39,073 nucleotides of DNA, taken from the IMG/VR virus record IMGVR_UViG_2869976549_000001; one strand, written 5' to 3'. Numbering within the stretch: position 1 is the first letter of the stretch; each line of letters opens with the position of its first letter. The notes under the pieces are model-generated. The model was not told where the DNA came from. It saw only the letters and a program-made list of their open reading frames with translations, and did no database searches. Both the position numbers and the translations under genes were made by a program. This document shows, in pieces, positions 1,201 to 28,414 of the stretch. Origin of the DNA: a virus. Its lineage: Duplodnaviria; Heunggongvirae; Uroviricota; Caudoviricetes.

Positions 1201-1549
1201 ATTGCTCTGCGGCTTCGCTCAGAGCTGGCGTATGTTCCCGGCCTACTGATTCACACAGGTAATCAACGAAACCGGACACCAGTTTTCGTTCGCGAGGCGT
1301 GATCGCCCCACCGACCGGAGTCCAGTAATCGAAACCCAGTTGCAGGAGTTTGAAAAAACGCTTGTGGAATGCGTAGTTACACACACGCTTAAAGTCTGCG
1401 TGTATCCACTCACCTATTTTGATTTGATGCAGAAAATCGCAACTCTCCGGCGTCGCCGGGAGAAGTAATCCGGAAGAGGTTTGTTTGACCAGTTGTATAT
1501 GTGCCATCGGCTTTCTCCGGTGGCACGGTGTTACACAGCAGGAGTTCAA
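1201..1549 (-). pseudogene. Hypothetical prophage protein, 3' end truncated by IS600 copy 1
   Basis: Minus-strand ORF 1154..1549 runs from unique DNA into the IS600 right end, so its last residues are IS-encoded; start overlaps the upstream ORF stop (ATGA coupling at 1546-1549). Confidence 0.35.
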
Positions 1550-1833
1550 TCCTGCTCAAGATTGTAGATGAGTTTATTCTTCAGCAAAAGCAGAAAACCA
1601 GCCTTAAAACCAATCTCTTTCAAAACCCGTAATGATGTGACAAATTCGTCCTCACGCAAAATAAAACCGTCCGTCAGAAGTCCATTACAAAAATAAAATA
1701 ACACAGCACCGCTCTTCCTTTGTTGAGATTGCAAACATCTAATGCGGCAATGGCTGACAATCGCTCCATTCTCAACGCGCACAGCATAGAGGCCATTTTC
1801 ACTAAAAATTTCACGCAATTCTTCGATTTTCAT
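1546..1833 (-). CDS. Hypothetical prophage protein (95 aa)
   Basis: ORF translationally coupled to the downstream ORF; no family recognised. Confidence 0.3.
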   Translation of the reverse strand: MKIEELREIFSENGLYAVRVENGAIVSHCRIRCLQSQQRKSGAVLFYFCNGLLTDGFILREDEFVTSLRVLKEIGFKAGFLLLLKNKLIYNLEQD

Positions 1834-2082
1834 CTTCAGAATCCTTCCAGATAAATAGCTCTCCCCTGTTCGGGGTCCATCCCTCTTCTCCCTGCGCGCT
1901 ACTTAAGTGAGTCGATTCTATCTGCGAAGGTGCGCGAATCAAATTCACCGGAAATAAACAACAAAAAACCCGCCGAAACGCTGAGAGATCACAGCGATGG
2001 GCGGGTTAAGTGCGGGTGCGTTGAGGATGCCTGACACATCAGAGGTGGGCGGGGATGGGATCAGCTCCCCGCCCGGTCACTC

Positions 2083-2238
2083 TTACTTCCTGGATTCGTA
2101 GTCTACGAAGACAGCGACCTCCGTCTGGCCGGTTCGGATTCGTACCTCACAGAGGTCTTTCCTCGTTACCAGTGCCGTCACTATGACGGTTAAACAGATG
2201 ACGATCAGGGCGATTAACATCGCCTTTTGCTGCTTCAT
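2083..2238 (-). CDS. hok: Hok/Gef-family membrane toxin (type I toxin; HokD/RelF-like)
   Basis: 51-aa product MKQQKAMLIALIVICLTVIVTALVTRKDLCEVRIRTGQTEVAVFVDYESRK: single TM helix plus the conserved LCE(V/I)RI...EVAAF-type Hok core. The listed ORF (2083..2295) is a 5' extension, possibly the overlapping mok-like frame. Confidence 0.75.
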   Translation of the reverse strand: MKQQKAMLIALIVICLTVIVTALVTRKDLCEVRIRTGQTEVAVFVDYESRK

Positions 2239-2465
2239 AGCCTGCTTCTCCTTGCCTTTCGGCATGTAAGAGGCTAACCTACATGTGCAAAGCATGAAAT
2301 TGGCCTCAGATTAATGTTAAGCGTCTTGCCGGACGCGTAATGTTAACTGGGGCTTTTCTCTATCTGCCTTTTGGTGTTCATGCCTGAAGCAGATAGCCTC
2401 AAGCACCCGCAGTCATTCTACTTACCTCGCCAATATGAAATCAATCAGAAAGGTGCCCCATAAAA

Positions 2466-3152
2466 TCACTCCTTCTCTTCTTTACCGTAGTGGAGTTGAC
2501 CAATTTTGATAAGAGGGCGTCCCTGAGATTTGCGGTGTAGATTGGTATCGCGCAGAGAATACACACAGCCACAATATTCCTGCTGATAGAATTTTTCGCG
2601 CTTGCTGATTTCAATCATACGGGACGAGCCGCCCTGCTTGCGCCAGTTATAATCCCAGTACACCATGCCCGGATAATGCGCGACGGCTCGCCGCCCACAG
2701 TCGTTAACCTGCTGCATATTTTTCCAGCGTGAAATGCCCAGTGAACTGCTGATCACACTGAAACCATTTTCAGCGGCGTACAGCGCTGTCCGCTCAAAAC
2801 GCATGTCAAAACACATGGTGCAACGGATCCCTCGTTCGGGCTCCCATTCCATTCCTTTGGCTCGTTCAAACCAGTTGTCTGTGTCGTAATCAGCATCAAT
2901 AAACGGCACGCCGTGTTGTTCAGCAAAGCGAATATTCTCATCCTTACGAATTAAATACTCTTTCTGAGGATGAATGTTCGGGTTGTAGAAAAAGATGGTG
3001 TAGTCGATTCCCGAGGCCTGAAGCGCCTCCATCACCTCACCGGAACATGGAGCACAGCAAGAGTGCAGTAGTAGTTTGTTTGCCCCGTTTGGGAGCTCCA
3101 ATTTGGGCCGTTTGAAATCAGCAACTGTCATAAATATGTTTATTGGGGTCAT
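2466..3152 (-). CDS. queH: DUF208 / QueH-like epoxyqueuosine-reductase-family Fe-S protein
   Basis: [11 protein letters not shown] motif near the N-terminus plus downstream RCxxCF and YCGC cysteine motifs typical of QueH. Start codon uncertain (alternative Met at about 3131). Confidence 0.55.
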
Positions 3153-3299
3153 AAAAATATCAAAGAGTGTAGCATTAGAACGGGGCTATCGGAAACAGAT
3201 GTGTGACTGCTCCCCGCCCTTTCGGGTGGTCTCCTGATGATTTGAGGGTGCAGAAATCCCTCCGGTTAAGGATTAAATTTTTAACAGTGCTAAATTTAA

Positions 3300-3713
3300 T
3301 TATTCAGTTCTGGATTTTGTCGCCCTGCGTATCCGCGCTTTCGCGTTACGCTCAATCTGTATCAGCTTTTCTATATTTCTCCGCCTTTCCTGTTCCTCCT
3401 GGCGCAATAGCCTTACATCATCTGCCAGTCTGGTTTCTCTTTTTGCCACAGAGAGCATCCAGTCAAACGGCTCCACAACCGCACCGCAGATTTTACAGCG
3501 GACCTGACGCTCTTTTTCGTCAACCCGTACAGAGGCGTGATGGCAATATGGTCTTTCCGATGGCTCATAAAGAAAATTAACCTGATTACGAGGGTCATCC
3601 TCTTTTACCGGAAATAAAACGATATTGCTTAACTCATCTTCTGGTTTTATTTCCATGCTCCTCTCCTTTGATGCGAATGCCAGCGGTAATTGAAGCCTGA
3701 TAGCTAATTTCAT
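3300..3713 (-). CDS. Hypothetical prophage protein with C-x16-C-x2-C cysteine cluster and basic coiled C-terminus
   Basis: 137-aa ORF abutting the upstream gene stop; possible alternative start at about 3656. Confidence 0.35.
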   Translation of the reverse strand: MKLAIRLQLPLAFASKERSMEIKPEDELSNIVLFPVKEDDPRNQVNFLYEPSERPYCHHASVRVDEKERQVRCKICGAVVEPFDWMLSVAKRETRLADDVRLLRQEEQERRRNIEKLIQIERNAKARIRRATKSRTE

Positions 3714-4136
3714 TCACAGTATCGCCTCCTGAAAATTACCCTGATAGAAAGCCAGTACACGCTGCATAGCTTCGCTCTTCCGGCACTCGCGACAGATTAT
3801 ATTCAGGCGCCTGTCGTAGCGGCGTATTTCTCCGTCAGGTAATGACCAGATAAGGTCCGGATCAACAACAACCGGTTTCCTCACCTTTACTCTCGAGAGT
3901 TTTTTGCGGGCGCTTTGCCAGTCCTTGCGAGCCTGTTCAGACGGGAATAAGCCGTAGCCAGAATTATATACATCACCACTTGCGACCAGTTCTATGCATA
4001 AGCGACCGACAGACGCACGACTGATACCTGTTTCATCTGACAACTGCCGAATCGTGACCCGACCGTCCTGATGCACGAGTTCCACAATTCGCGTCTTCAG
4101 TTCTTCCCGCTGTTCGGGAGTAAAAGGTTTCGCCAT
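3714..4136 (-). CDS. Hypothetical prophage protein (140 aa), in the position of Rac YdaW
   Basis: ORF immediately downstream of the DnaC-like gene, same strand, 14-bp gap. Confidence 0.4.
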   Translation of the reverse strand: MAKPFTPEQREELKTRIVELVHQDGRVTIRQLSDETGISRASVGRLCIELVASGDVYNSGYGLFPSEQARKDWQSARKKLSRVKVRKPVVVDPDLIWSLPDGEIRRYDRRLNIICRECRKSEAMQRVLAFYQGNFQEAIL

Positions 4137-4150
4137 AAATCCTCCTGAAA

Positions 4151-4897
4151 CTACTTAACAACCCTCGAATGGCTAACATTCGGACGCCAGCTCTCCCAGT
4201 TAAAATTCACCCAGCGCCCGCCGTTCATGACCATGCGATCCATCACCCGCTCGCCGAGCAATGTTTTCATCACCTCATAGTTCAGGTTTGTCAGCATCCC
4301 CACGCTGCGCATCGACGCTGTCCGGCGATCAACAATCTGGTGCAGCACCACCTGCTCGTTTTTCGTCTCGCGCTGAATGCCAATTTCATCAAGAACCAGC
4401 AGATCCACTTCGCACAGCTCCCGCAAAAATTTTTCGCCTGACTGCCCGTCGTCATAGCTGGCGTGCAGGGCGCTCATAACATCAGCCACGGTAACCACAA
4501 TCACTGTCTGACCGTCTTTCAGCAGGCGATTCCCGATAGCTGCCGCTAAGTGATTCTTCCCGGTACCAGGTTTTCCGCTGAACGCAAAATTTGTACACCC
4601 GGTCATCAGTTCATCGGCGATGGATTTCGCCTGGCTTAACGCGTATCGCTGGCCGTCGTTCTGCACCTGGTAATTCGCAAACGAGCATTTACGGTGCAAC
4701 GGCTGGATGCCTGAGCGATTCAGAATTTTTTCCACCCGCAACTGGCGATTCAGGCGGTTGATCTCCTCGCTACGTTTCTGGCCTTCAGCAAGTTGCCACT
4801 CGCGCCACTCCGCTACCGTTCTGAATGGGGCGGTTACATGTGGCGGGGTCAGTCGGCGGATGCGTTCCAGAACGCCGCCTGTCGCAATATTTTTCAT
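4151..4897 (-). CDS. ydaV: DnaC-like replication ATPase / helicase loader (YdaV-like)
   Basis: 248 aa; Walker A GKPGTGKNHLAAAIG and Walker B DLLVLDEIG, IstB/DnaC family; sits 6 bp after the initiator stop. Confidence 0.8.
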   Translation of the reverse strand: MKNIATGGVLERIRRLTPPHVTAPFRTVAEWREWQLAEGQKRSEEINRLNRQLRVEKILNRSGIQPLHRKCSFANYQVQNDGQRYALSQAKSIADELMTGCTNFAFSGKPGTGKNHLAAAIGNRLLKDGQTVIVVTVADVMSALHASYDDGQSGEKFLRELCEVDLLVLDEIGIQRETKNEQVVLHQIVDRRTASMRSVGMLTNLNYEVMKTLLGERVMDRMVMNGGRWVNFNWESWRPNVSHSRVVK

Positions 4898-5251
4898 GGT
4901 CCGTTACCCCCTGAAGCCTGGCGGGATCGCACTGTCCGGCAACGAGACGGTGTTAACCTGTCGGAGCAACGTCTCAGGCCGAACACCTTTCGGCGCGAAC
5001 AGGCCCTGGTATTCATTGGCGATGCTGTGTCGAATCACCTGCTCAGGTGTAAAACCCTGCTGACGGAATTTTTCCAGTTCCCGTATCGCCCCGTTAGCGC
5101 CCTGCTCCGTTCGAATCGGTTTTCGCAATGCCTGTCTGAACCGGACCCACTCATGCCAGAGTGTTTCCGGCAACCAATCGGGCAGCTCAATAGCCTCCGG
5201 CTCGAATTTTTTAGACGCTCGTTTTTGGCGAGGGGGAGATCAGTATTTAGA

Positions 5252-5302
5252 TCTTCCTCTTCCTCTTCCTCTTCCTCTTCCTCTTCCTCTTCCTCTTCCT
5301 CT
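5252..5302. repeat. Hexanucleotide tandem repeat (TCTTCC) x8.5; encodes a poly-Glu linker on the minus strand
   Basis: Perfect tandem copies 5252-5299 plus partial copy; in frame (GAG GAA)n on the minus strand inside the initiator gene. Confidence 0.9.
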
Positions 5303-5326
5303 GGTAACGCTTTTTGATCCGTTTGT

Positions 5327-5345
5327 GTAACGCTGGCAGCGTTAC
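5327..5345. promoter_or_regulatory. Palindrome GTAACGC-N5-GCGTTAC, copy 1 of 3 (candidate origin/operator site)
   Basis: GTAACGCTGGCAGCGTTAC next to the poly-Glu repeat; an extra GTAACGC half-site at 5304-5310. Confidence 0.4.
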
Positions 5346-5535
5346 CTTTTCGTTTCAGTTCGCGTATTTTTGTTACTCGCTCGTTTGTAACCGCCCGTTT
5401 TTTTTAGAGCTTTTTCCGTTATGACGTTCAAAGTTAGGTAGAGAAAGCCCTCCGTCATTTTCGACCAGCCATCCAACCTGAATTAACGCATCAGCAAAAC
5501 CAGACATAAAAGTGATGCGATCTATTGCACTTTTT

Positions 5536-5554
5536 GTAACGCCGCGAGCGTTAC
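5536..5554. promoter_or_regulatory. Palindrome GTAACGC-N5-GCGTTAC, copy 2 of 3
   Basis: GTAACGCCGCGAGCGTTAC inside the 5' part of the initiator gene. Confidence 0.4.
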
Positions 5555-5581
5555 AATCTGCATTACCGTCTGGATTTGCCC

Positions 5582-6487
5582 CTATATTTCCAGACATCTG
5601 TTATCACTTAACCCATTACAAGCCCGCTGCCGCAGATATTCCCGTGGCGAGCGATAACCCAGCGCACTATGCGGATGCCATTCGTTATAATGCTCGAACG
5701 CCTCTGCAAGGTTCTTTGCTGCCGTTAACCCGTCTGGTTTGGGCATGATACTGATGTAGTCACGCTTTATCGTTTTCACGAAGCTCTCTGCTATTCCGTT
5801 ACTCTCCGGACTCCGCACCGCCGTGTTCTTCGGTTCAAGTCCCAACATCCGGGCGAACTGGCGTGTTTCATTAGCCCGGTAGCATGAACCATTATCCGTC
5901 AGCCACTCCACTGGAGACGACGGAAGATCGTTGCCGAAGCGGCGTTCCACCGCTCCCAGCATGACGTCCTGTACTGTTTCACTGTTGAAGCCGCCGGTAG
6001 TCACCGCCCAGTGCAGTGCCTCACGATCACAGCAGTCCAGCGCGAACGTGACACGCAGTCTCTCTCCGTTATCACAGCAGAACTCGAACCCGTCAGAGCA
6101 CCATCGCTGATTGCTTTCTTTCACGGCCACTCTGCCTGTATGTGCCCGTTTCGATGGCGGTACAGCAGGTTTTCGCTCAAGCAACAGCGCATTCTGGCGC
6201 ATGATCCGGTAAACACGTTTGGCATTGATCGCAGGCATACCATCAAGTTCTGCCTGTCTGCGAAGCAGCGCCCATACCCGACGATAACCATACGTGGGCA
6301 GCTCTCCGATAACATGGTGTATACGGAGAAGCACATCCGTATCATCAGTGTGACGACTGCGGCGGCCATCCATCCAGTCATCGGTTCGTCTGAGAATGAC
6401 GTGCAACTGCGCACGCGACCCCCGGAGACAACGGCTGACTAAGCTTACTCCCCATCCCCGGGCAATAAGGGCGCGTGCGCTATCCAC
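5582..6487 (-). CDS. insD: IS2 transposase InsD (OrfB)
   Basis: 301-aa ORF, DDE integrase-core motifs; identical to the copy at 14057..14962. Confidence 0.9.
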
Positions 6488-6810
6488 TTTTTTGCCCGTC
6501 CATATTCAACGGCTTCTTTGAGGAGTTCATTTTCCATCGTTTTCTTGCCGAGCAGGCGCTGGAGTTCTTTAATCTGCTTCATGGCGGCAGCAAGTTCAGA
6601 GGCAGGAACAACCTGTTCTCCGGCGGCGACAGCAGTAAGACTTCCTTCCTGGTATTGCTTACGCCAGAGAAATAACTGGCTGGCTGCTACACCATGTTGC
6701 CGGGCAACGAGGGAGACCGTCATCCCCGGTTCAAAGCTCTGCTGAACAATTGCGATCTTTTCCTGTGTGGTACGCCGTCTGCGTTTCTCCGGCCCTAAGA
6801 CATCAATCAT
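6445..6810 (-). CDS. insC: IS2 InsC (OrfA, HTH)
   Basis: 121-aa product from Met [13 protein letters not shown]...; the listed ORF has a 15-aa 5' extension. Confidence 0.85.
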
Positions 6811-6901
6811 CTGTACTCCAATGACTAGTCTAAAAACTAGTATTAAGACTATCACTTATTTAAGTGATACTGGTTGTCTGGAGATTCAGGGGGCCAGTCT
6901 A

Positions 6902-6946
6902 CCGTCTATCATTTGTTGATCCGCCCATGCCCAGAAGCGAATAACC
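6902..6946 (-). pseudogene. 45-bp internal fragment of the replication initiator gene, stranded between IS2 and IS600
   Basis: After excising both IS elements and one copy of each duplication, the fragment reads in frame (...VIRFWAWADQQMID...) between the 8211-8317 and 5373-5570 segments. Confidence 0.55.
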
Positions 6947-7010
6947 TGAGGTAGCCTGAGTTTAACGGACACTCCTTCCTGAAATAGAATGGCATCAGAA
7001 GGAGCTAATA

Positions 7011-7313
7011 ATGAGCAGAAAAACCCAACGTTACTCTAAAGAGTTCAAAGCCGAAGCTGTCAGAACGGTTCCTGAAAATCAACTTTCGATCAGTGAAGGC
7101 GCTTCCCGATTATCTCTTCCTGAAGGCACTTTAGGACAATGGGTTACCGCCGCCAGAAAAGGGCTCGGTACTCCTGGTTCCCGCACGGTGGCTGAACTGG
7201 AATCTGAAATTCTGCAACTGCGTAAGGCGTTAAATGAAGCTCGCCTTGAGCGAGATATATTAAAAAAAGCAACAGCGTATTTTGCACAGGAGTCGCTGAA
7301 AAATACGCGTTAA
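7011..7313 (+). CDS. IS600 transposase OrfA
   Basis: Identical to 1..303. Confidence 0.9.
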   Translation: MSRKTQRYSKEFKAEAVRTVPENQLSISEGASRLSLPEGTLGQWVTAARKGLGTPGSRTVAELESEILQLRKALNEARLERDILKKATAYFAQESLKNTR

Positions 7314-7348
7314 TCGAACAATGGCGACAACAATTTCCCATTGAAGCG

Positions 7349-8167
7349 ATGTGTCAGGTATTTGGTGTATCCAGGAGCGGTTATTACAACTGGGTACAGC
7401 ATGAACCCTCAGACAGAAAACAAAGTGATGAGCGGCTAAAACTGGAGATTAAGGTGGCACATATCCGCACTCGCGAAACATATGGAACCCGGCGGCTCCA
7501 GACGGAGCTGGCAGAGAATGGCATCATCGTTGGTCGTGACCGACTGGCACGTCTTCGTAAGGAGCTAAGGCTACGCTGTAAGCAGAAACGCAAGTTCAGA
7601 GCGACTACGAACTCGAACCACAATCTGCCAGTTGCGCCAAATCTGCTGAACCAGACGTTCGCTCCTACAGCACCAAATCAGGTCTGGGTGGCGGACCTGA
7701 CGTATGTTGCCACACAGGAGGGATGGTTGTACCTCGCTGGCATCAAAGATGTTTATACGTGCGAAATTGTCGGCTACGCCATGGGAGAGCGCATGACAAA
7801 AGAGCTGACAGGTAAAGCCCTGTTTATGGCGCTCAGGAGCCAGCGCCCACCTGCCGGGCTAATCCACCACTCTGATCGAGGTTCACAGTACTGCGCATAC
7901 GATTACCGGGTCATACAGGAGCAGTCTGGTCTGAAAACATCAATGTCGCGTAAAGGTAACTGTTACGACAACGCTCCGATGGAAAGCTTCTGGGGAACGC
8001 TGAAAAATGAGAGCCTGAGCCACTATCGTTTTAATAACCGGGATGAAGCCATCTCAGTAATACGGGAATACATTGAGATTTTCTACAATCGTCAGCGTCG
8101 TCACTCTCGTCTGGGGAATATCTCCCCGGCAGCCTTCAGGGAAAAATATCATCAGATGGCTGCTTAA
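7349..8167 (+). CDS. IS600 transposase OrfB
   Basis: Identical to 339..1157. Confidence 0.9.
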   Translation: MCQVFGVSRSGYYNWVQHEPSDRKQSDERLKLEIKVAHIRTRETYGTRRLQTELAENGIIVGRDRLARLRKELRLRCKQKRKFRATTNSNHNLPVAPNLLNQTFAPTAPNQVWVADLTYVATQEGWLYLAGIKDVYTCEIVGYAMGERMTKELTGKALFMALRSQRPPAGLIHHSDRGSQYCAYDYRVIQEQSGLKTSMSRKGNCYDNAPMESFWGTLKNESLSHYRFNNRDEAISVIREYIEIFYNRQRRHSRLGNISPAAFREKYHQMAA

Positions 8168-8210
8168 AAAAAGAACAAATGGTAGTGTCCGCTATTGCCA
8201 GTACACCTCA

Positions 8211-8317
8211 ACCTTCCCTAATGCGGCATCTGGATCAATATTCAGAATCTCAGCAAGCCTGAATATTTCCGGCTTATCCGGCGTAATAACCTCGAGCTTT
8301 ATCCAGTTTGAAGCCAT
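8211..8317 (-). pseudogene. N-terminal fragment of the replication initiator (YdaU-like): MASNWIKLEVITPDKPEIFRLAEILNIDPDAALGKV
   Basis: ATG at 8317..8315 preceded by RBS AAGGTG; reading frame continues across the IS600 and IS2 insertion sites once the elements are removed. Confidence 0.55.
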
Positions 8318-8330
8318 TTGTTTTCACCTT

Positions 8331-8349
8331 GTAACGCTCGCAGCGTTAC
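8331..8349. promoter_or_regulatory. Palindrome GTAACGC-N5-GCGTTAC, copy 3 of 3, directly upstream of the initiator RBS
   Basis: GTAACGCTCGCAGCGTTAC abutting the AAGGTG RBS (rc of 8325-8330) of the initiator start at 8317. Confidence 0.4.
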
Positions 8350-8394
8350 ATTTAACTGATACCGAACAAAACAATCCGGCACGATTAATTTCAA

Positions 8395-17923: not shown

Positions 17924-19277
17924 TTTCTGGACTATGCGGGCACGTAACAAAGTGCTTTATGGTGGTCGGTCATCGTCAAAATCATGGGATGCCGCTGGCA
18001 TTGCCATATTTCTGTCGAATAAATACACCCTGCGTTTTTGTTGTGCCCGTCAGATCCAGAATAAAATCGAAGAGTCGGTGTATACCCTGCTCAAAATTCA
18101 GATAGACAGGTTTGGTCTGCGGCACCGTTTCCGTATTCTGAACAACAAAATCATTAACCGGGTTACTGGCTCGGAATTTGTTTTTTATGGATTATGGCGC
18201 AACATCGAAGAAATTAAGTCACTGGAGGGGATCGATGTGTTGTGGCTGGAAGAAGCCCACGCACTGACGGAATACCAGTGGAAAATTCTGGAGCCAACGA
18301 TCCGTAAAGAGGGTTCGGAATGCTGGTTCATATTCAACCCCGGACTTGTTACTGATTTCGTCTGGCGCAACTTCGTTGTTGATCCGCCCGAAGGCACTCT
18401 CATCCGCAAAATTAACTATGACGAAAATCCGTTTCTGTCTGACACCATGCTTAAGGTTATCGACGCGGCGCGACGCCGTGATCCGGATGGTTTTAAACAT
18501 GTGTATGAGGGCGTTCCGGAGTCTGATGATGATGCGGCAATCATCAAACTGTCTTGGATAGAAGCCGCAGTGGATGCGCACAAAACGTTAAATTTCGAAC
18601 CCAGTGGAAGAAAGCGTATTGGCTTTGACGTGGCTGACAGTGGTACAGATAAGTGCGCTAACGTTTACCGTCACGGATCCGTTGTTTTCTGGGCCGACGA
18701 ATGGAAGGCCAAAGAAGATGAATTACTGAAGAGCTGCCAGCGTACTTATCAGGCGGCGCTGGAGCGTGAAGCAGATATTGTTTACGACTCTATCGGTGTT
18801 GGTGCGTCTGCCGGTGCTAAATTCTCTGAAATTAACGCTGACCGGAAGAGCGAGAACGCATACGCGCGACGTGTGAATTACCAGAGGTTTAACGCCGGTG
18901 CTGGTGTGCATGAGCCAGATGACGAGTACAACGGCATCCCCAACAAAGACTTTTTCGCAAATCTTAAGGCTCAGGCATGGTGGCTGGTGGCTGACCGTTT
19001 CAGAAATACGTTTAACGCCATTAACAACGGAGAACAGTATCCTGTGGATGAGCTGATCAGCATAGATTCTCGTTGTCCGTTGCTTGAAAAGCTGAAACTG
19101 GAACTGACAACACCTCATCGTGATTTCGACCGTAACGGACGTGTGATGGTCGAAAGTAAAAAAGACCTCGCAAAACGCGAGATACCGTCACCAAACGTTG
19201 CTGATGCATTCATTATGGCCTTCGCGCCAATCGATACATCGCTGGATATCTGGGAACAGCTGGGGAGACAGGCCTGA
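17847..19277 (+). CDS. Terminase large subunit
   Basis: ATPase and nuclease-type motifs (VLYGGRSSSKSWD Walker A-like; DVLWLEEAH). Start uncertain: candidate ATGs at 17835, 17847, 17850, 17856; the listed ORF begins at a TTG at 17766. Confidence 0.8.
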   Translation: MMAMESVTSMTSTLTSKPTLNPALRSFWTMRARNKVLYGGRSSSKSWDAAGIAIFLSNKYTLRFCCARQIQNKIEESVYTLLKIQIDRFGLRHRFRILNNKIINRVTGSEFVFYGLWRNIEEIKSLEGIDVLWLEEAHALTEYQWKILEPTIRKEGSECWFIFNPGLVTDFVWRNFVVDPPEGTLIRKINYDENPFLSDTMLKVIDAARRRDPDGFKHVYEGVPESDDDAAIIKLSWIEAAVDAHKTLNFEPSGRKRIGFDVADSGTDKCANVYRHGSVVFWADEWKAKEDELLKSCQRTYQAALEREADIVYDSIGVGASAGAKFSEINADRKSENAYARRVNYQRFNAGAGVHEPDDEYNGIPNKDFFANLKAQAWWLVADRFRNTFNAINNGEQYPVDELISIDSRCPLLEKLKLELTTPHRDFDRNGRVMVESKKDLAKREIPSPNVADAFIMAFAPIDTSLDIWEQLGRQA

Positions 19278-19453
19278 TGGCACGAAACAAACAAGCCCTG
19301 CGGCGAACTGTGCAGGCCACAGCTGATGGTTATGAGAATTTTATTGCCCGCGTAGGGATGCAGACACCTAACCAGCACTCAGCATCCACCTACCGGGCTA
19401 ATTTCACCAGTCGTAACCGCATGCTGGTGGAATGGTCCTATCGTTCATCCTAA
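19277..19453 (+). pseudogene. Portal gene, 5' segment (58 codons) ending at the TAG that forms the IS630 target
   Basis: ATG overlaps the terminase stop (TGATG); MARNKQALRRTVQATADGYENFIARVGMQTPNQHSASTYRANFTSRNRMLVEWSYRSS then TA(A) at the IS630 junction. Confidence 0.5.
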
Positions 19454-20605
19454 ATAGCTGCGCGGAATAGTAGATCACTTTGAGGGAACTTAGCCCGGAT
19501 TGTGCGATCTGATCAATCGCCAAATCAAAACAAATCACCAACCGGACTGAGCAATGCCGATCATAGCACCAATTTCCCGTGACGAACGACGCCTGATGCA
19601 GAAAGCCATCCATAAAACACACGATAAAAATTATGCCCGCAGACTGACTGCCATGCTGATGCTGCACCGGGGCGACCGTGTCAGCGACGTTGCCAGAACG
19701 CTCTGCTGCGCCCGTTCCTCTGTTGGACGCTGGATTAACTGGTTCACGCAGTCGGGTGTTGAGGGACTGAAATCATTACCTGCCGGGCGTGCCCGTCGCT
19801 GGCCGTTTGAGCATATCTGCACACTGTTACGTGAGCTGGTAAAACATTCTCCCGGCGACTTTGGCTACCAGCGTTCACGCTGGAGTACAGAACTGCTGGC
19901 AATAAAAATCAATGAGATAACCGGTTGCCAGTTAAATGCCGGAACCGTTCGCCGCTGGTTGCCGTCTGCGGGGATTGTGTGGCGAAGGGCTGCGCCAACT
20001 CTGCGTATCCGTGACCCGCATAAAGATGAAAAGATGGCAGCAATCCATAAAGCACTGGACGAATGCAGCGCAGAGCATCCGGTCTTTTATGAAGATGAAG
20101 TGGATATCCATCTTAATCCCAAAATCGGTGCGGACTGGCAACTGCGCGGACAGCAAAAACGGGTGGTCACGCCGGGACAGAATGAAAAATATTATCTGGC
20201 CGGAGCGCTGCACAGCGGGACAGGTAAAGTCAGCTGTGTGGGCGGCAACAGCAAAAGTTCGGCGCTGTTCATCAGCCTGCTGAAGCGGCTTAAAGCGACA
20301 TACCGTCGGGCGAAAACCATCACGCTGATCGTGGACAACTACATTATCCACAAAAGCCGGGAAACACAGAGCTGGCTGAAGGAGAACCCGAAGTTCAGGG
20401 TCATTTATCAGCCGGTTTACTCGCCATGGGTGAATCATGTTGAACGGCTATGGCAGGCACTTCACGACACAATAACGCGTAATCATCAGTGCAGCTCAAT
20501 GTGGCAACTGTTGAAAAAAGTTCGCCATTTTATGGAAACCGTCAGCCCATTCCCCGGAGGCAAACATGGGCTGGCAAAAGTGTAGCGGTATTAAGCGCAG
20601 CTATT
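19453..20605 (+). mobile_element. IS630, 1153 bp, with TA target duplication inside a CTAG site
   Basis: Terminal inverted repeats AAATAGCTGCGC at 19453 and rc at 20605; TA at 19451-19452 and 20606-20607; pre-insertion target reads CCTAGA. Confidence 0.88.
19554..20585 (+). CDS. IS630 transposase
   Basis: 343-aa ORF, Tc1/IS630-family DDE transposase. Confidence 0.88.
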   Translation: MPIIAPISRDERRLMQKAIHKTHDKNYARRLTAMLMLHRGDRVSDVARTLCCARSSVGRWINWFTQSGVEGLKSLPAGRARRWPFEHICTLLRELVKHSPGDFGYQRSRWSTELLAIKINEITGCQLNAGTVRRWLPSAGIVWRRAAPTLRIRDPHKDEKMAAIHKALDECSAEHPVFYEDEVDIHLNPKIGADWQLRGQQKRVVTPGQNEKYYLAGALHSGTGKVSCVGGNSKSSALFISLLKRLKATYRRAKTITLIVDNYIIHKSRETQSWLKENPKFRVIYQPVYSPWVNHVERLWQALHDTITRNHQCSSMWQLLKKVRHFMETVSPFPGGKHGLAKV

Positions 20606-20608
20606 TAG

Positions 20609-20809
20609 ATCATCGGCGAAGCAGTCGATGCTATCCCGGATGATATGACCCGCAAAGGCATTCGCATCACTTCGGAAATTGATGCAAAAGATCGTGGCAT
20701 TCTCGAATCACAACTGGATGAGTTGCAAATCTGGGATGCGCTGAATGACGTGCTGAAATGGTCGCGCCTCTACGGCGGCGCGGTGGGTTTCATCATGATT
20801 GAGGGGTAG
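20609..20809 (+). pseudogene. Portal gene, middle segment (66 sense codons) ending at a second in-frame TAG (20807-20809)
   Basis: Open frame IIGEAVDAIPDDMTRKGIRITSEIDAKDRGILESQLDELQIWDALNDVLKWSRLYGGAVGFIMIEG-TAG, same frame as the portal ORF at 20816. Confidence 0.5.
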
Positions 20810-20815
20810 GCACCA

Positions 20816-21898
20816 ATGACCCCGCTGCGACCCGAAACCATCGGTAAGGGCAAGTTTAAGGGGATTCTCCCGCTCGACCGCTGGATGGTCGACCCGGCAC
20901 TGACCCGCCGCATTAAAGATATGGGGCCGGACCTGGGTAAACCTGAGTTTTACGATGTGGTGACCACAGCAACGGGAATTCCTGCCTGGCGCATTCATCA
21001 CAGTCGCCTGATTCGCTTTGATGGCGTCACGTTGCCATTTCAGCAGAAGATGACCGAGAACGAATGGGGAATGTCGGTTGTAGAGCGTATCTGGGATCGT
21101 CTTACCGCGTTCGACAGCGCTACTGTCGGCGCGGCGCAGCTGGTCTACAAGGCGCATTTGCGTACCTACAGCGTGGAGAAGCTACGCGAGCTTATCGCAC
21201 TTGGTGGTCCTGCGTATGAAGCGTTGCTGAAGAATATCGACCTGATTCGACAGTTCCAGAGTAATGAAGGCATGACGCTCATGGACTCGCGGGATAAGTT
21301 TGAAACCCATCAGTACAGCTTCAGTGGTCTGGATGACATCCTTTCGCAGTTTGTAGAACAGATTAGTGGCGCTGTTGGTATCCCACTGGTGCGGTTGTTC
21401 GGACAGTCCCCGAAAGGATTTTCTACCGGTGATGCAGACCTTGCCAACTATTACGATCGCATCAGTTCGTTGCAGGAGAGGCGTTTACGTCTTCCGGTGC
21501 GGCGGATACTGGACATCATGCATCGTTCGGAACTTGGCAAGCCGCTGCCGGACGATTTCACGTTTGAGTTTAACCCGCTCTGGCAAATGTCTGATGTCGA
21601 TCGCTCAACGGTGGCGTTAAACACCACCAACGCAATCAGTACGGCGCTGGGTGATGGTCTGATGACACTGAAAGCCGCTATGACTGATTTGCGAGAAAAT
21701 TCTGACGTAACCGGCATCGGGGCATCCATTACCGACGAGGACATCGAGAATGCCGAAGATGAAGCGCCGCCCGGCATCGGCGAACCTGATGACGAACCGC
21801 AGGAGCCGTCAGGCGGAAATCCGGTATCGAACCAGCCTACGCAGGATAGCGAGGGCGGTCGGAGACATCGTAAATGGTCGCTACGATGGTTCAAATGA
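20816..21898 (+). CDS. Phage portal protein, major C-terminal ORF (360 aa)
   Basis: Position between terminase and head-morphogenesis genes; acidic C-terminal tail; in frame with the two upstream segments. Confidence 0.65.
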   Translation: MTPLRPETIGKGKFKGILPLDRWMVDPALTRRIKDMGPDLGKPEFYDVVTTATGIPAWRIHHSRLIRFDGVTLPFQQKMTENEWGMSVVERIWDRLTAFDSATVGAAQLVYKAHLRTYSVEKLRELIALGGPAYEALLKNIDLIRQFQSNEGMTLMDSRDKFETHQYSFSGLDDILSQFVEQISGAVGIPLVRLFGQSPKGFSTGDADLANYYDRISSLQERRLRLPVRRILDIMHRSELGKPLPDDFTFEFNPLWQMSDVDRSTVALNTTNAISTALGDGLMTLKAAMTDLRENSDVTGIGASITDEDIENAEDEAPPGIGEPDDEPQEPSGGNPVSNQPTQDSEGGRRHRKWSLRWFK

Positions 21899-22532
21899 CA
21901 GTATCACGGAAATTATTGCGGCGCTGGAGCGTTACAGTGAAATCATCACCCCCTGGGCGACAAAGGTCGCGGAAAACTTTACTGCGGACCTAACCCGGCA
22001 GAACGAGAAAGTTTGGCGGCAACACAGCAAGAACATCAGTCGCGAGCTCCGCAATCTTGTGGAAAGCGCTCCTGTGGGCCAGGTGATGCAATCCATCATC
22101 GCCGAACAGGTCAAGTACATCAAATCTCTGCCTCTCGAGGCCGCAGACAGGGTGTACGACATCCAGAACAAAGCGATAGAGGCTGTTGTCACCGGTGGTC
22201 GGGCGGAGCAGTTTGCTAAAGAGATTGCATCTACCGGCGATGTTGCTAAGTCTAGGGCCGATCTGATTGCCCGAACGGAACTGGGAAGAGCAACGGGCGC
22301 GCTGGATATGGCCCGAGCGATAGCTATTGGCTCGGATGGTTATATTTGGCGTACAGCCGATGATGGCGATGTCCGAGATTCCCACGATCACATGAAAGGT
22401 AAATTCGTCCGCTGGGATTCACCTCCAACTTTGGACGGCATGACCGGCCACGCGGGCGAGCTGCCAAACTGCCGCTGCTATAAAGAGATCGTGTTTGTTC
22501 GCGTTCCATTCGCAATGAAAAGGGCAGCATAA
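21750..22532 (+). CDS. Head morphogenesis protein (Mu F / SPP1 gp7-like minor head protein)
   Basis: 260-aa ORF overlapping the portal 3' end. Start uncertain: no in-frame ATG downstream of the portal stop and before the conserved region. Confidence 0.55.
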   Translation: MPKMKRRPASANLMTNRRSRQAEIRYRTSLRRIARAVGDIVNGRYDGSNDSITEIIAALERYSEIITPWATKVAENFTADLTRQNEKVWRQHSKNISRELRNLVESAPVGQVMQSIIAEQVKYIKSLPLEAADRVYDIQNKAIEAVVTGGRAEQFAKEIASTGDVAKSRADLIARTELGRATGALDMARAIAIGSDGYIWRTADDGDVRDSHDHMKGKFVRWDSPPTLDGMTGHAGELPNCRCYKEIVFVRVPFAMKRAA

Positions 22533-22535
22533 CCC

Positions 22536-23756
22536 ATGAAATACTTTTTTGAGACCAGGCTCGGGGAAACCCGATACCGCCTGGCTGACGGCTCGTTGCT
22601 GTGCAAAGACGTGCCGATAGGACGAACAGGTAAGCAGCTCTATGGTGCTGATGACCTGCCAAAACTGAAACCCGATAAGTTCGGTGAAATAGTCGTCACG
22701 CGTTCTCCTGAGCAGGTATTCCATCCGGCCACGCTTGCCTCATTCGAAGGGATGAGCATCACGATCCTGCATCCTGAAGATGAAAACGGGAATGTGCGGC
22801 TGGTAAATCCCGAGAACTGGAAAGAGCTTGCTGTCGGGCACCTCCAGAATGTCCGGCGCGGGACGGGTGAGCAGTCTGATTTGATGCTGGCTGACCTTAT
22901 CGTCAAAGACGAAAGCGCCATTCAGCTTATCGAAGATGGCCTGCGCGAAGTGTCGTGCGGCTATGACGCGGAGTACGAGCAGACCGAGCCAGGTAAAGCC
23001 GAGCAGGTCGATATTACCGGAAACCATGTGGCTCTTGTCCCTAAAGGCAGAGCCGGAAATCGTTGTGCAATTGGAGACAGAGACACAATGGCAAATCAAA
23101 AGAAAAACTGGTGGAACCGCATGCGTGCGGCCATCAAGACAGGAGATGCCGACACCATGAACGAACTGGTGGAGTCGGCTCCCGCATCGGTTACAGGAGA
23201 TGAGGGGGATTTGCCGCAGGGCGTTAATCTCAACATCAACCTGTCCCCGCAGCAACCACTACCGGACAAAGCACCAGAGATGGGCGGAGATCCAACCGGC
23301 GACAGTGATGATGACCTCAAAACATTACTGAAAGCCCTGCTGGCTAAGCTGGAAAGAAATGCCACGGGCGATAACGATAATAAGCCTGACGATAATCCGA
23401 CCGGTGACGGCGAGGACGATGAAGAGGAAACCACGATTACTGGTGACTCAGCCTGGCGTGCCGAAGTTATCGTTCCGGGTATCGATCTGAGCCGTAAGAT
23501 GAAACCGACCGCGTTCAAACGCGAGGTTCTGGCTTCTGCTGACAAAACGCTGGTTCGCCAGATAGTCGGTGATGCGGATATCCGCAAATTACCGAAACAA
23601 TCGGTCGACATGGCGTTTAATGCCGTGTCTGAGGTTGCCAAAGGGCGAAACACCCGCGCCACCACCGGCGATGCACAGCGCCTAAACATGGGCATGACCA
23701 GTATCGCTTCCCTGAACAAACAAAACGCTGAATTCTGGGCAAACCGTAAAGGGTAA
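22536..23756 (+). CDS. Putative prohead scaffold/protease protein
   Basis: 406 aa with a central acidic low-complexity linker (GDSDDD, GDNDNKPDDNPTGDGEDDEEE); position after the head morphogenesis gene. Confidence 0.45.
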   Translation: MKYFFETRLGETRYRLADGSLLCKDVPIGRTGKQLYGADDLPKLKPDKFGEIVVTRSPEQVFHPATLASFEGMSITILHPEDENGNVRLVNPENWKELAVGHLQNVRRGTGEQSDLMLADLIVKDESAIQLIEDGLREVSCGYDAEYEQTEPGKAEQVDITGNHVALVPKGRAGNRCAIGDRDTMANQKKNWWNRMRAAIKTGDADTMNELVESAPASVTGDEGDLPQGVNLNINLSPQQPLPDKAPEMGGDPTGDSDDDLKTLLKALLAKLERNATGDNDNKPDDNPTGDGEDDEEETTITGDSAWRAEVIVPGIDLSRKMKPTAFKREVLASADKTLVRQIVGDADIRKLPKQSVDMAFNAVSEVAKGRNTRATTGDAQRLNMGMTSIASLNKQNAEFWANRKG

Positions 23757-23759
23757 AAA

Positions 23760-24266
23760 ATGAATAATGTATTTCTGTACCGGATGCCTGTTGGCATTGC
23801 CGGGGCTGTCTCTCGCCCGCAGGACTTAACCGTCGAACCGGTGGTCCTTAAATCCGATAACGCCTTCGCTGCCTATGGCCTGGCTGGTAAATACGATGAT
23901 GACGGTTTTTTCGTGCCGCTGGCAGATGGTGATACCGCAGACAAGGTGAAGGGGATCTACGTGCGCCCTTATCCGACCACGTCGCAGCCGGACATGGTTC
24001 GCCAGGTGGGAACAGGCAAGAACTTCCCGGGCGACGCCATGAAGCGTGGCTACGTGACCGTTAATCTCGGTTCTGATTTTGATGCCAGCACTATCAAAAA
24101 AGGCGATCCGGTATACGTTGTCGTCTCCACTGATGAATCCATCAAAGTGCCGCTGGGTGGATTCATGTCCACGTCAGTCAGTGGCAAAAACGTGGTGCTG
24201 ACCAACGCTGAATTCACAGGTGCCGGTGATGCTGACGGCAATGCAGAAATTTCCTGGAAGATTTAA
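23760..24266 (+). CDS. Phage head structural protein (possible decoration protein)
   Basis: 168-aa ORF 3 bp after the scaffold gene; followed 15 bp later by IS1. Confidence 0.4.
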   Translation: MNNVFLYRMPVGIAGAVSRPQDLTVEPVVLKSDNAFAAYGLAGKYDDDGFFVPLADGDTADKVKGIYVRPYPTTSQPDMVRQVGTGKNFPGDAMKRGYVTVNLGSDFDASTIKKGDPVYVVVSTDESIKVPLGGFMSTSVSGKNVVLTNAEFTGAGDADGNAEISWKI

Positions 24267-24336
24267 GGAACAGACGAATGAGGTGATGCTGCCAACTTAC
24301 TGATTTAGTGTATGATGGTGTTTTTGAGGTGCTCCA

Positions 24337-24612
24337 GTGGCTTCTGTTTCTATCAGCTGTCCCTCCTGTTCAGCTACTGACGGGGTGGTGCGTAACGGCA
24401 AAAGCACTGCAGGACATCAGCGCTATCTCTGCTCTCACTGCCGTAAAACATGGCAACTGCAGTTCACTTACACCGCTTCTTAACCCGGTACGCACCAGAA
24501 AATCATTGATATGGCCATGAATGGCGTTGGATGCCGGGCAACTGCACGCATTATGGGCGTTGGCCTCAACACGATTTTACGTCACTTAAAAAACTCAGGC
24601 CGCAGTCGGTAA
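24337..24612 (+). pseudogene. insA: IS1 insA with in-frame TAA at codon 49
   Basis: GTG start, [22 protein letters not shown]... then GCT TCT TAA (24481-24483) where a sense codon is expected; frame otherwise intact to the normal stop. Confidence 0.7.
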
Positions 24613-25034
24613 CCTCGCGCATACAGCCGGGCAGTGACGTCATCGTCTGCGCGGAAATGGACGAACAGTGGGGCTATGTCGGGGCTAAATCGCGCCAGCG
24701 CTGGCTGTTTTACGCGTATGACAGTCTCCGGAAGACGGTTGTTGCGCACGTATTCGGTGAACGCACTATGGCGACGCTGGGGCGTCTTATGAGCCTGCTG
24801 TCACCCTTTGACGTGGTGATATGGATGACGGATGGCTGGCCGCTGTATGAATCCCGCCTGAAGGGAAAGCTGCACGTAATCAGCAAGCGATATACGCAGC
24901 GAATTGAGCGGCATAACCTGAATCTGAGGCAGCACCTGGCACGGCTGGGACGGAAGTCGCTGTCGTTCTCAAAATCGGTGGAGCTGCATGACAAAGTCAT
25001 CGGGCATTATCTGAACATAAAACACTATCAATAA
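24531..25034 (+). CDS. insB: IS1 InsB frame (167 aa)
   Basis: Full-length InsB-frame ORF; A-run frameshift window upstream. Confidence 0.8.
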
Positions 25035-25065
25035 GTTGGAGTCATTACCAACAGGGGGATTTACC

Positions 25066-25197
25066 ATGCTTATTGGCTATGTACGCGTATCAACAAATGA
25101 CCAGAATACCGATCTACAACGTAATGCGTTTATTTGTGCCGGAAGTGAGTTGATTGTTGAGCGAATGGGAAGTTGGCCAGAAGTTGTTATGGCATAG
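25066..25197 (+). pseudogene. Serine recombinase (Pin/Hin-type DNA invertase) N-terminal remnant
   Basis: MLIGYVRVSTNDQNTDLQRNAF (catalytic Ser motif) then degenerates and stops after 43 codons; begins 16 bp after the IS1 end. Confidence 0.6.
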
Positions 25198-25447
25198 TGT
25201 TTACGGTCGTTGATACAGGTAAACAAAAGCGGGGAGAGTCATACTCCCTGAATAGTCGCGAAAATATCTGTGGCATTGTCAAATTCGTGTCGGTGACTAA
25301 TATTTTAGTAATATGCCATTCGAAATGGAGTGCTAACTTATTGATTTAATTGATGTGCGATATTGTATTTTATCGTGTTTTGTTGTCTGTTTTTTATCCA
25401 GTAAGTGTTGTTATGTGTATGAAAGATAAGGGATTTATCATTTTTGA

Positions 25448-26452
<1,005 letters not shown>

Positions 26453-26492
26453 CCGCTGATTTACCCGGCGCAGTCTCTCCTGCGCCGGTGTA

Positions 26493-27446
26493 TTAACCTA
26501 TCTCCTGTAACGCATGTCTCTGGCGTTCGACGATATTGGTCCACAAATTGTCTTTATCGTCAGTCCACAAATTAATCAGCAAGGCAAAAAAGCGTTCTGC
26601 TGCCGGAGAAAGCACGGCATCTTTGCGGCGAATAATCCCCAATGTCCGACGTATAACGGGTTCCACCAGTGGAATACCAATAATCGAAGAATAGGGCGCA
26701 TGGGGCATTGCCAGACCAGGAAGCGCCGAAATCCCCAGTCCCGCCTCTACCAGTCCTAATGACGTCGAAAGATGACGCACTTCGTAAAACCAGTCCAGCT
26801 TCCAGGGCTTGTCGGCCAGCTGTTGTTCTATCAACAGTCGGTTGCCGCTGGAGGAGCGTACGCCAATCATTTTGTAACCCACTAACTCCTGCCATTCTAC
26901 AAGCTGCTTTTTGGCCAATGGATGGTCACGCCGACAGGCCAGCACGAACGGCTCGTTGACCAGTGGGGTAAAATCAATGGATGAATTTGTGACGTTGTTC
27001 ATGTTTATGCCAAAGTCTGATTCGTTACACAGCACCGATTCCATGCAATTATTCGTGCCTTGTTCCAGAATCCGCACTTTAATATTGGGATACAGCTCAT
27101 TAAATTTACCGATTGCCAGCGGTAAAAAATAAAATACTGCGGTCGGAATACACGCTAACGTCACCATACCACGATGATAAGCATTCATATCACGAATATT
27201 AAAAAGCGTTTCATCGAATTTCTTTATTAATTCCCGCGCCTCCGGGAGCAACCTTTTTCCTGCTTTTGTTAACGTAACCTTGCGAGTTGTACGCTCAAAT
27301 AGTTGAATATGTAAATCTTCCTCCATCTTTTTTATTCTTCGCGTTAATGCAGGTTGCGTAATATTGAGTAATTTAGCGGCATTGTTAAACGAACTGGACT
27401 CTGCCAGTATGACAAATGCCTTCATACTTGATAATTCATGCTTCAT
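26493..27446 (-). CDS. ybhD: LysR-family transcriptional regulator YbhD
   Basis: N-terminal LysR HTH (MKAFVILAESSSFNNAAKLLNITQPALTRRIKKMEE) and substrate-binding domain; divergent from pgl as in E. coli. The listed ORF has a 21-aa 5' extension. Confidence 0.85.
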   Translation of the reverse strand: MKHELSSMKAFVILAESSSFNNAAKLLNITQPALTRRIKKMEEDLHIQLFERTTRKVTLTKAGKRLLPEARELIKKFDETLFNIRDMNAYHRGMVTLACIPTAVFYFLPLAIGKFNELYPNIKVRILEQGTNNCMESVLCNESDFGINMNNVTNSSIDFTPLVNEPFVLACRRDHPLAKKQLVEWQELVGYKMIGVRSSSGNRLLIEQQLADKPWKLDWFYEVRHLSTSLGLVEAGLGISALPGLAMPHAPYSSIIGIPLVEPVIRRTLGIIRRKDAVLSPAAERFFALLINLWTDDKDNLWTNIVERQRHALQEIG

Positions 27447-27646
27447 TATTACTCCGGAAAATGGAAGCGACGATTTTGGGTGGCTGGCCGTTAAAAATTT
27501 TAACTGCATTTAGCCAACTTAAATTAATGAAAAAATGTTATTAATCGTTGAGCTAAAGTCATTAGAGATGCTTTGCCCTTAATGTAACCATATCGCAATA
27601 AGTTATGTTTTTAAATTGAGGGCATTATTATGAAAAAAATACCCTG

Positions 27647-28414
27647 GGTAATGACTCCAACTTATTGATAGTGTTTTATGTTCAGATAATGCCCGATGGC
27701 TTTGTCATGCAGCTCCACCGATTTTGAGAACGACAGCGACTTCCGTCCCAGCCGTGCCAGGTGCTGCCTCAGATTCAGGTTATGCCGCTCAATTCGCTGC
27801 GTATATCGCTTGCTGATTACGTGCAGCTTTCCCTTCAGGCGGGATTCATACAGCGGCCAGCCATCCGTCATCCATATCACCACGTCAAAGGGTGACAGCA
27901 GGCTCATAAGACGCCCCAGCGTCGCCATAGTGCGTTCACCGAATACGTGCGCAACAACCGTCTTCCGGAGACTGTCATACGCGTAAAACAGCCAGCGCTG
28001 GCGCGATTTAGCCCCGACATAGCCCCACTGTTCGTCCATTTCCGCGCAGACGATGACGTCACTGCCCGGCTGTATGCGCGAGGTTACCGACTGCGGCCTG
28101 AGTTTTTTAAGTGACGTAAAATCGTGTTGAGGCCAACGCCCATAATGCGTGCAGTTGCCCGGCATCCAACGCCATTCATGGCCATATCAATGATTTTCTG
28201 GTGCGTACCGGGTTAAGAAGCGGTGTAAGTGAACTGCAGTTGCCATGTTTTACGGCAGTGAGAGCAGAGATAGCGCTGATGTCCTGCAGTGCTTTTGCCG
28301 TTACGCACCACCCCGTCAGTAGCTGAACAGGAGGGACAGCTGATAGAAACAGAAGCCACTGGAGCACCTCAAAAACACCATCATACACTAAATCAGTAAG
28401 TTGGCAGCATCACC
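27647..28414 (-). mobile_element. IS1, copy B, 768 bp, inverted relative to copy A; no target-site duplication
   Basis: rc of IS1 termini at 27647 and 28414; flanks AATACCCTG / CAAAAAAGG differ; carries the same insA TAA (28213-28215). Confidence 0.9.
27662..28165 (-). CDS. insB: IS1 InsB frame
   Basis: 167-aa ORF, identical to copy A except one residue. Confidence 0.8.

Follow-up and report, generated by a model that had tools for sequence, protein, structure and literature searches.

What was the gene whose pieces lie on the minus strand at 4904-8317 of the virus record IMGVR_UViG_2869976549_000001 (39,073 nucleotides; this whole stretch of DNA is called the window below), and how did it come to be broken? 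An earlier note on the window had described a replication initiator gene that was hit by two insertion sequence (IS) elements, IS2 and IS600, 45 bp apart, and that was further disrupted by frameshifts at homopolymer runs. Our analysis leads us with considerable confidence to the reading that the pieces are the dead remnant of a prophage replication-initiator gene, disabled by four events in what would be a neutral, IS-driven decay as found in Shigella. In and just before the gene lie three conserved palindromes, which are candidate origin sites.

The two insertions could be placed to the base, as all junctions were re-derived. IS2 occupies 5571-6901 on the minus strand (1331 bp) with CCGTC on both sides (5566-5570 and 6902-6906), and its termini read TGGATTTGCCCC... 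and ...GGGGGCCAGTCTA. Its orfA (6445-6855) and orfB (5582-6487) are both intact and matched 'IS2 transposase TnpB' (1.2e-218) and 'IS2 repressor TnpA' (4.4e-83) in NCBIfam; the length, the 5-bp CCGTC duplication and the IS2-type OrfA/OrfB together identify this IS3-family element as IS2. IS600, also of the IS3 family, lies on the plus strand at 6947-8210 (1264 bp) between two copies of ACC (6944-6946 and 8211-8213), with orfA (7011-7313) and orfB (7349-8167) intact and with IS3-family matches for OrfA/OrfB in NCBIfam. Along its whole length the copy shares 99.8% identity with RefSeq elements that carry the annotation 'IS3-like element IS600 family transposase', and this near-identity, the 1264 bp and the 3-bp duplication identify it as IS600. 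The interval between the two elements, 6902-6946, is 45 bp long when one copy of each duplication is counted in. In the uninterrupted homologs (L001-L003), which read ...GGGAAGGTTATTCGC...ATGATAGACGGTAATGCAG..., alignment showed a single GGT and a single GACGG, and both flanking repeats (unstranded) are therefore true target-site duplications. The coordinates and duplications thus bear out two elements 45 bp apart in one minus-strand gene. Both insertions also appear, as had been claimed, to have been simple transpositions, since their duplications are intact; in contrast, IS600 at 33030 and both IS1 copies of the window have lost theirs via rearrangement. It can reasonably be inferred that IS2 and IS600 entered a prophage that was already integrated. 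The IS2 copy is identical to a second copy at 14046-15376 (0 of 1331 positions differ), and the IS600 copies of the window differ by 0-1 bases, compared over full length or 1200 nt.

To rebuild the gene, each IS was excised together with one duplication copy and the reverse complement was taken. The resulting 846 nt align end to end with intact 789-bp genes of E. coli and Shigella prophages, which encode 262 amino acids (aa). The rebuilt sequence was matched in 1419 complete E. coli genomes, and in 680 of these over at least 80% of its length; L002 and L003 are examples of intact copies, and L002 is annotated 'phage replication initiator YdaU family protein'. One continuous N-terminus returns on excision, as predicted, and a search with the rebuilt ORF (open reading frame) found homologs that span both junctions: its first frame reads MASNWIKLEV...HNGKSSKK, and the N-terminus is identical to the homologs as far as ...HNGKSSKK. 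The 5' piece of the pseudogene (8211-8317, minus strand) starts with the ATG at 8315-8317 and carries codons 1-36, identical to the start of L001-L003; its last three bases are a copy of the ACC/GGT duplication, and it falls in the listed ORF 8192-8317. The 45-bp interval between the elements (minus strand), with its copy of each duplication, forms the middle piece. Alignment to intact genes places both frameshift lesions and a repeat expansion in the 3' piece (4904-5570, minus strand), which ends with the stop codon at 4904-4906.

Downstream the coding signal does pass through two further frames, and the frame use along the rebuilt gene is 0, then 2, then 1. The lesions behind these shifts are of another kind than the single-base homopolymer changes proposed in the earlier note. 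At the T8 run (5398-5405, minus strand; A8 on the coding strand) no single base is missing; the intact genes have T6 (A6) here, and the lesion is a +2 insertion. The second shift, which had been ascribed to slippage at a G5 or a T6 run, is located at G5 and is a deletion of 10 bp between 7-bp direct repeats: the intact genes read TCCCCCTAAATCCCCCT where the window has one TCCCCCT, and the lone AGGGGGA at 5231-5237 (minus strand; TCCCCCT on the coding strand) is its scar. The T6 run is the same in the intact genes and lies at 5207-5212, not at 5208-5213 as given before. A change of +2 followed by one of -10 accounts for the observed frames 0, 2 and 1, and adding one base per homopolymer, as had been suggested, restores the frame but not the ancestral sequence. 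Between the two frameshifts a tandem repeat, (TCTTCC)8.5 at 5252-5302 (minus strand; GAAGAG on the coding strand), encodes a poly-Glu linker. Its length exceeds that of the array in most intact genes (L002/L003) by 30 bp, with the frame kept. It has 8.5 units in the window and in L001 and fewer in L003, L006, L007 and L009, alleles that are otherwise near-identical, and it thus behaves as a variable tandem repeat.

Could the frameshifts or the IS arrangement be artefacts of sequencing or assembly? Homopolymer runs and IS copies are where assembly errors classically arise, and the GAAGAG copy number is unequal between the window and L006, a contig of the Logan short-read assembly of SRR6248939 that has four units fewer. 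This same contig, however, reproduces the IS2 junction, where it includes 29 terminal nt of IS2, and has both A8 and the deletion of 10 bp; as these features are shared by an independent assembly they are not assembly errors. Likewise present on this one independent contig is a chimeric ORF of 74 aa (5373-5597), which begins within IS2 and runs as far as the A8 frameshift. Moreover, a homopolymer error cannot be a 10-bp deletion, and the clean duplications at both IS elements match single copies in the homologs. We therefore regard an artefact as highly improbable. The 71-nt double junction had no exact match in species-representative genomes, and both IS junctions together were found in no complete E. 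coli genome, so the lineage of the window itself is not among these two collections.

The identity of the ancestral protein was approached through the intact 262-aa homologs and the surrounding genes. PHROG 2509, 'replication initiation protein', matched residues 1-262 at profile positions 1-277 (1.2e-89), which places the protein in this family, and the C-terminal half also matched PHROGs labelled 'primosomal protein' and 'replication initiation O-like'. The gene order is cI-like, cro-like, ydaT, initiator gene and DnaC-like ydaV. The ydaV/DnaC-like helicase-loader gene (4151-4897, minus strand) sits directly downstream of the pseudogene and is intact, with 248 aa, a full-length match to NCBIfam PRK12377 (8e-154) and Pfam matches to IstB_IS21 and Bac_DnaA. 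Gene position, database labels and a link to DnaT thus point to a function as replication initiator, and to this extent the assignment made in the earlier note stands by PHROG 2509 and gene order; the two types that had been suggested for it, YdaU/DUF1376 and lambda O, do not. The intact protein had no Pfam match at E<=10 and none in NCBIfam, and its N-terminal half does not align with YdaU of E. coli K-12. For lambda O, the missing Pfam match was accompanied by a BLASTP E of 0.95 and an hhalign probability of 0.5%, that is, no detectable sequence similarity.

The C-terminal half tells where the YdaU label of some close homologs, named ydaU or 'YdaU family' in their records, comes in. Residues 167-285 of K-12 YdaU are 85% identical to the C-terminal 119 aa of this protein, and this is the only part that aligns; K-12 YdaU has DUF1376 (PF07120) at residues 22-104 (2.7e-26), and the N-domain of the present protein is unrelated to it. 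The K-12 Rac prophage otherwise has the same order as found here, with ydaT, an initiator-like gene and a DnaC-like ydaV. Residues 170-262 matched the C-terminal domain of DnaT in the PDB (phmmer; 2ru8_A, 9.5e-5; 9zbt_D, 3e-4), and these chains, the K-12 YdaU identity and three predicted helices assign the region to the YdaU/DnaT-type C-domains. The initiator gene has a DnaC homolog next to it, much as dnaT shares an operon with dnaC in E. coli, but the N-half of DnaT differs and its context is replication restart, compared with a phage origin-initiation module here. The same HHpred link to DnaT is noted for the homolog in the genome record of phage epsilon15. Since K-12 YdaU aligns over the last 119 residues only and the N-halves are unrelated, the gene reads as a mosaic of a non-YdaU N-domain and a YdaU/DnaT-type C-domain, and, judged by its homologs, the N-domain belongs to a widespread phage initiator family other than DUF1376 or lambda O. 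In many E. coli and Salmonella homologs (376 aa, P0011-P0058) the poly-Glu linker is separated from the C-domain by some 115 inserted aa (columns 200-323 of alignment A1), which in this alignment appears as further mosaicism within the initiator family.

An AlphaFold model built with 41 sequences showed an ordered N-domain (residues 11-95) of helices and a beta-hairpin, a linker (96-159) and a C-domain (160-235) of three helices with block-mean pLDDT (predicted local distance difference test) values of 82-91. The linker, basic and poly-Glu in composition, is predicted to be disordered. Foldseek comparison of the model with the PDB gave nothing significant (best E about 0.6-1). The best matches were mostly proteins that we take to be winged-helix carriers (MarR/IclR-type regulators and N-domains of methyltransferases), a weak hint that the N-domain may be a winged helix. 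The helical N-domain with its beta-hairpin probably binds DNA. Lambda O is built in the same way, from a specificity domain at the N-terminus, a flexible linker and a domain at the C-terminus, and it also has the same place directly upstream of a helicase-loading gene (O relative to P).

If the protein bound DNA, where would its sites be? The motif GTAACGC-N5-GCGTTAC occurs at three sites in the window and nowhere else in it, where 0.01 would be expected. Palindrome A (GTAACGCTCGCAGCGTTAC, 8331-8349) lies 14 bp upstream of the ATG, and its position is kept in distant homolog loci; palindrome B (GTAACGCCGCGAGCGTTAC, 5536-5554) covers codons 53-59 and is 16 bp from the IS2 end; and palindrome C (GTAACGCTGGCAGCGTTAC, 5327-5345) is in the linker, just upstream of the polypurine GAAGAG (poly-Glu) array (all three unstranded). 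The 49-kb relative L005 has the same three palindromes and no others. We fetched 23 distant homolog loci with 31-97% protein identity from Mixta, Erwinia, Yersinia, Serratia, Pantoea, Pectobacterium and some metagenome-assembled genomes, and in 20 of them the motif was present at the corresponding places, with nearly invariant arms and a free spacer. Positional conservation extends to homologs with about 40% protein identity and takes in phages of Xanthomonas and Pseudomonas; both internal sites are kept in phage TL-2011b, Xanthomonas phage CP2 and Pseudomonas phage PAN70, and are not kept in the more distant phage epsilon15. Within the arms the synonymous third positions are fixed, with AAC in 18/18 and 16/16 loci and GTT in 16/17 and 16/16, whereas at most other conserved residues the third position varies much more (frequency of the commonest base typically 0.3-0.8). 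This pattern indicates that the palindromes are conserved by selection at the DNA level.

The kind of selection was addressed by the variants. Perfect palindromes made up 45 of the 58 sites, and none of the 13 variants was compensated on the other arm; locus L028 even has the same non-complementary variant at both sites. Hairpins were thereby ruled out, and the lack of compensation argues for sequence-specific protein binding instead. The K-12 Rac region, unlike this locus, has no GTAACGC-N5-GCGTTAC site, and as it shares the C-domain and ydaV and has a DUF1376 N-domain, the motif therefore travels with the N-domain described here. The most economical interpretation would be that these are the initiator's own binding sites, serving as origin and/or autoregulatory operator. 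That the palindromes are the origin or operator sites of a widespread phage initiator family in which a novel N-domain is joined to a DnaT-like C-domain, bound by the protein's own N-domain and with the origin embedded in the gene, is a proposal whose chances we judge to be about even. Lambda offers the closest parallel, as its four iterons are inside O and candidate sites are inside the gene here too, but lambda's iterons are adjacent, whereas the three 19-bp palindromes of this locus follow each other at distances of about 190-220 bp and include one that precedes the gene. An embedded origin of this kind may thus resemble that of lambda and yet consist of dispersed palindromes. A mode like that of lambda O would call for initiator binding and origin activity, which are predictions; observed are the loader gene downstream and three conserved palindromes under DNA-level constraint. 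A literature search with the palindrome sequence returned only unrelated papers and none that describes the motif, and the palindrome set of this gene family is apparently undescribed so far.

How, then, was the gene lost? The ancestral gene encoded a 262-aa two-domain protein directly upstream of the DnaC-like helicase loader. Four independent events disabled it: a simple IS600 insertion with a 3-bp duplication, a simple IS2 insertion with a 5-bp duplication, a +2 slippage within the A6 run and the loss of 10 bp between direct repeats of 7 bp. The hexanucleotide repeat was also expanded in frame. As for the order of events, this decay would have followed the loss of lytic capacity by the prophage and would have been neutral, driven by the IS expansion that is typical of Shigella. 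The surroundings show similar decay, with 11 IS copies, a frameshifted neighbouring ydaT and prophage segments that are inverted or deleted. Different lesions were found elsewhere: a complete S. flexneri genome (L009) and an S. flexneri contig (L007) have an 11-bp deletion between GGGCG repeats and neither A8 nor the 10-bp deletion, and in E. coli 2013C-4974 the copy, which is missing 1 bp, bears the annotation of a frameshifted gene. Loss of the gene has therefore occurred several times independently.

Such repeated inactivation would also be expected if loss of the initiator was selected, in that a replication-dead prophage would lock in its ipaH cargo and avoid lethal induction, and ipaH is indeed carried on this prophage. 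Four lesions in one gene nevertheless fit better with relaxed constraint after a first hit; the frameshifted ydaT and a structural module cut by IS630, IS2 and IS1 show that the whole element is decaying; and the near-full-length copy is retained in 680 E. coli genomes. Selected loss thus seems to us unlikely. Somewhat less likely still is that the two IS elements lie close together because transposition favours this spot, where, for example, origin DNA by palindrome B might be bent or occupied by protein. IS2 lies 16 bp from this palindrome and directly adjoins a half-site-like GTAATGC. The 530-bp contig L007 (AAVSXW010000394.1 of S. flexneri GCA_014406365.1) starts exactly at GACGG, the sequence of the IS2 duplication. 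With A6, the 10 bp present and its own 11-bp deletion it is another allele, and its start is as expected with an IS there; a second Shigella species may thus have an IS at this very position, whether because the site is a hot spot or because the two share a history. The contig end does not reveal, on the other hand, which repeat follows, and in L009, a complete S. flexneri genome, the gene is free of IS elements. Further, in simulations that placed 11 insertions in the 26.6 kb outside IS elements, the closest pair was at most 45 bp apart in 17% of cases, and the proximity of IS2 and IS600 is therefore not remarkable here. That origin DNA is a preferred IS target may be entertained as a bolder extension of the origin reading.

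We accordingly favour neutral decay of a prophage replication initiator. Several points weigh against this account. The N-domain lacks a Pfam or NCBIfam model match and a significant structural match, and the role of the family as replication initiators is a predicted one. Work on Rac lists ydaUVW as genes of undetermined function (PMC11014345), and the literature on YdaU held only statements to the same effect. Finally, given where L007 starts, the IS2 site may be a recurrent rather than a random target.

The gene is set in the chromosome of Shigella sonnei, within a lambdoid prophage that carries ipaH and has been heavily scrambled by IS elements. Proteins of the window are identical to S. 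sonnei entries, including those of strain Ss046 in UniProt, Q3Z419 (a truncated 726-aa hydratase) and Q3Z436 (a 101-aa YdaT remnant). The best uninterrupted relative is a prophage in NZ_CP065613.1, from a strain labelled E. coli in which ipaH is present; it is 99.1-99.8% identical to the window and lacks these insertions. The 11 IS copies make up about 32% of the 39-kb window. Besides the two in the gene, IS600 is found at 1-1200, 9883-10594 (partial, then another IS3-family element) and 33030-34293, the second IS2 at the position given above, an IS110-family element at about 12379-13837, an IS630-family element at about 19452-20607 and IS1 at 24282-25049 and 27647-28414. At 9883-11835 IS600 is matched over its first 712 nt only and is followed by another element of the IS3 family, whose transposase ORF (279 aa) is encoded by the minus strand, which makes this a nested or truncated IS junction.

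The upstream neighbour of the initiator gene is a ydaT-family pseudogene (8395-8816, minus strand), in which alignment with L005 revealed a 1-bp deletion near 8779/8780. What remains are ORFs of 58 and 101 aa, compared with a 140-aa gene in L005, and the 101-aa part matches Pfam YdaT_toxin. Comparison with the uninterrupted prophage L005 further showed an inversion of 1201-9885, the segment of the immunity and replication genes, with respect to the lysis and head genes (11836-24281). Missing from the window are L005 19731-21498, including four tRNA genes, and the tail genes (L005 29987-44789). A single IS600-IS600 recombination was ruled out as the cause of the inversion, as the flanking IS600 copies are in direct orientation, and its history is therefore more complex. 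Both IS elements in the gene and the second IS2 retain their duplications, whereas the flanks of IS600 at 33030 and of both IS1 copies do not match, and these three copies are therefore recombination partners. At 24282-34293 the prophage remnant encloses host genes, which lie between a pair of IS1 copies in inverted orientation and an IS600; they comprise pgl, a LysR regulator, the truncated 726-aa hydratase, a 427-aa putative acyl-CoA thioester hydrolase and a 270-aa tyrosine recombinase (integrase-like). The lack of target duplications at the IS copies here indicates IS-mediated rearrangement. Two Rfam families scored above their gathering scores: the sok antitoxin RNA at 2233-2408 (minus strand, 117 bits), in agreement with a hokD annotated correspondingly in L005, and naRNA4 at 30676-30746 (plus strand, 63 bits).

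For the biology of S. sonnei, decay of this gene by IS elements and indels is ordinary and already known. IS-driven pseudogenes in Shigella have been traced to expansions of IS1, IS2, IS4, IS600 and IS911, and in S. sonnei IS elements are behind 50% of pseudogenes, while a further 12% of interrupted genes have an IS together with other inactivating mutations (Hawkey et al. 2020, PMC7373316). Elements (IS2 and IS600), organism and outcome are the same as at this locus, without essential difference, and the finding itself carries little weight beyond being a clean, documented example of a decay of prophage genes already described for Shigella. It also holds a caution for annotation, in that the gene is neither of the DUF1376 nor of the lambda-O type and its frameshifts are not single-base homopolymer errors. 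The part most worth following up is the palindromes, which provide a testable candidate origin or binding site for a common phage initiator family known from sequence alone. If this proposal is true, the IS pair would have broken the replicon in cis as well as in trans, with 2.6 kb now lying between sites A and B.

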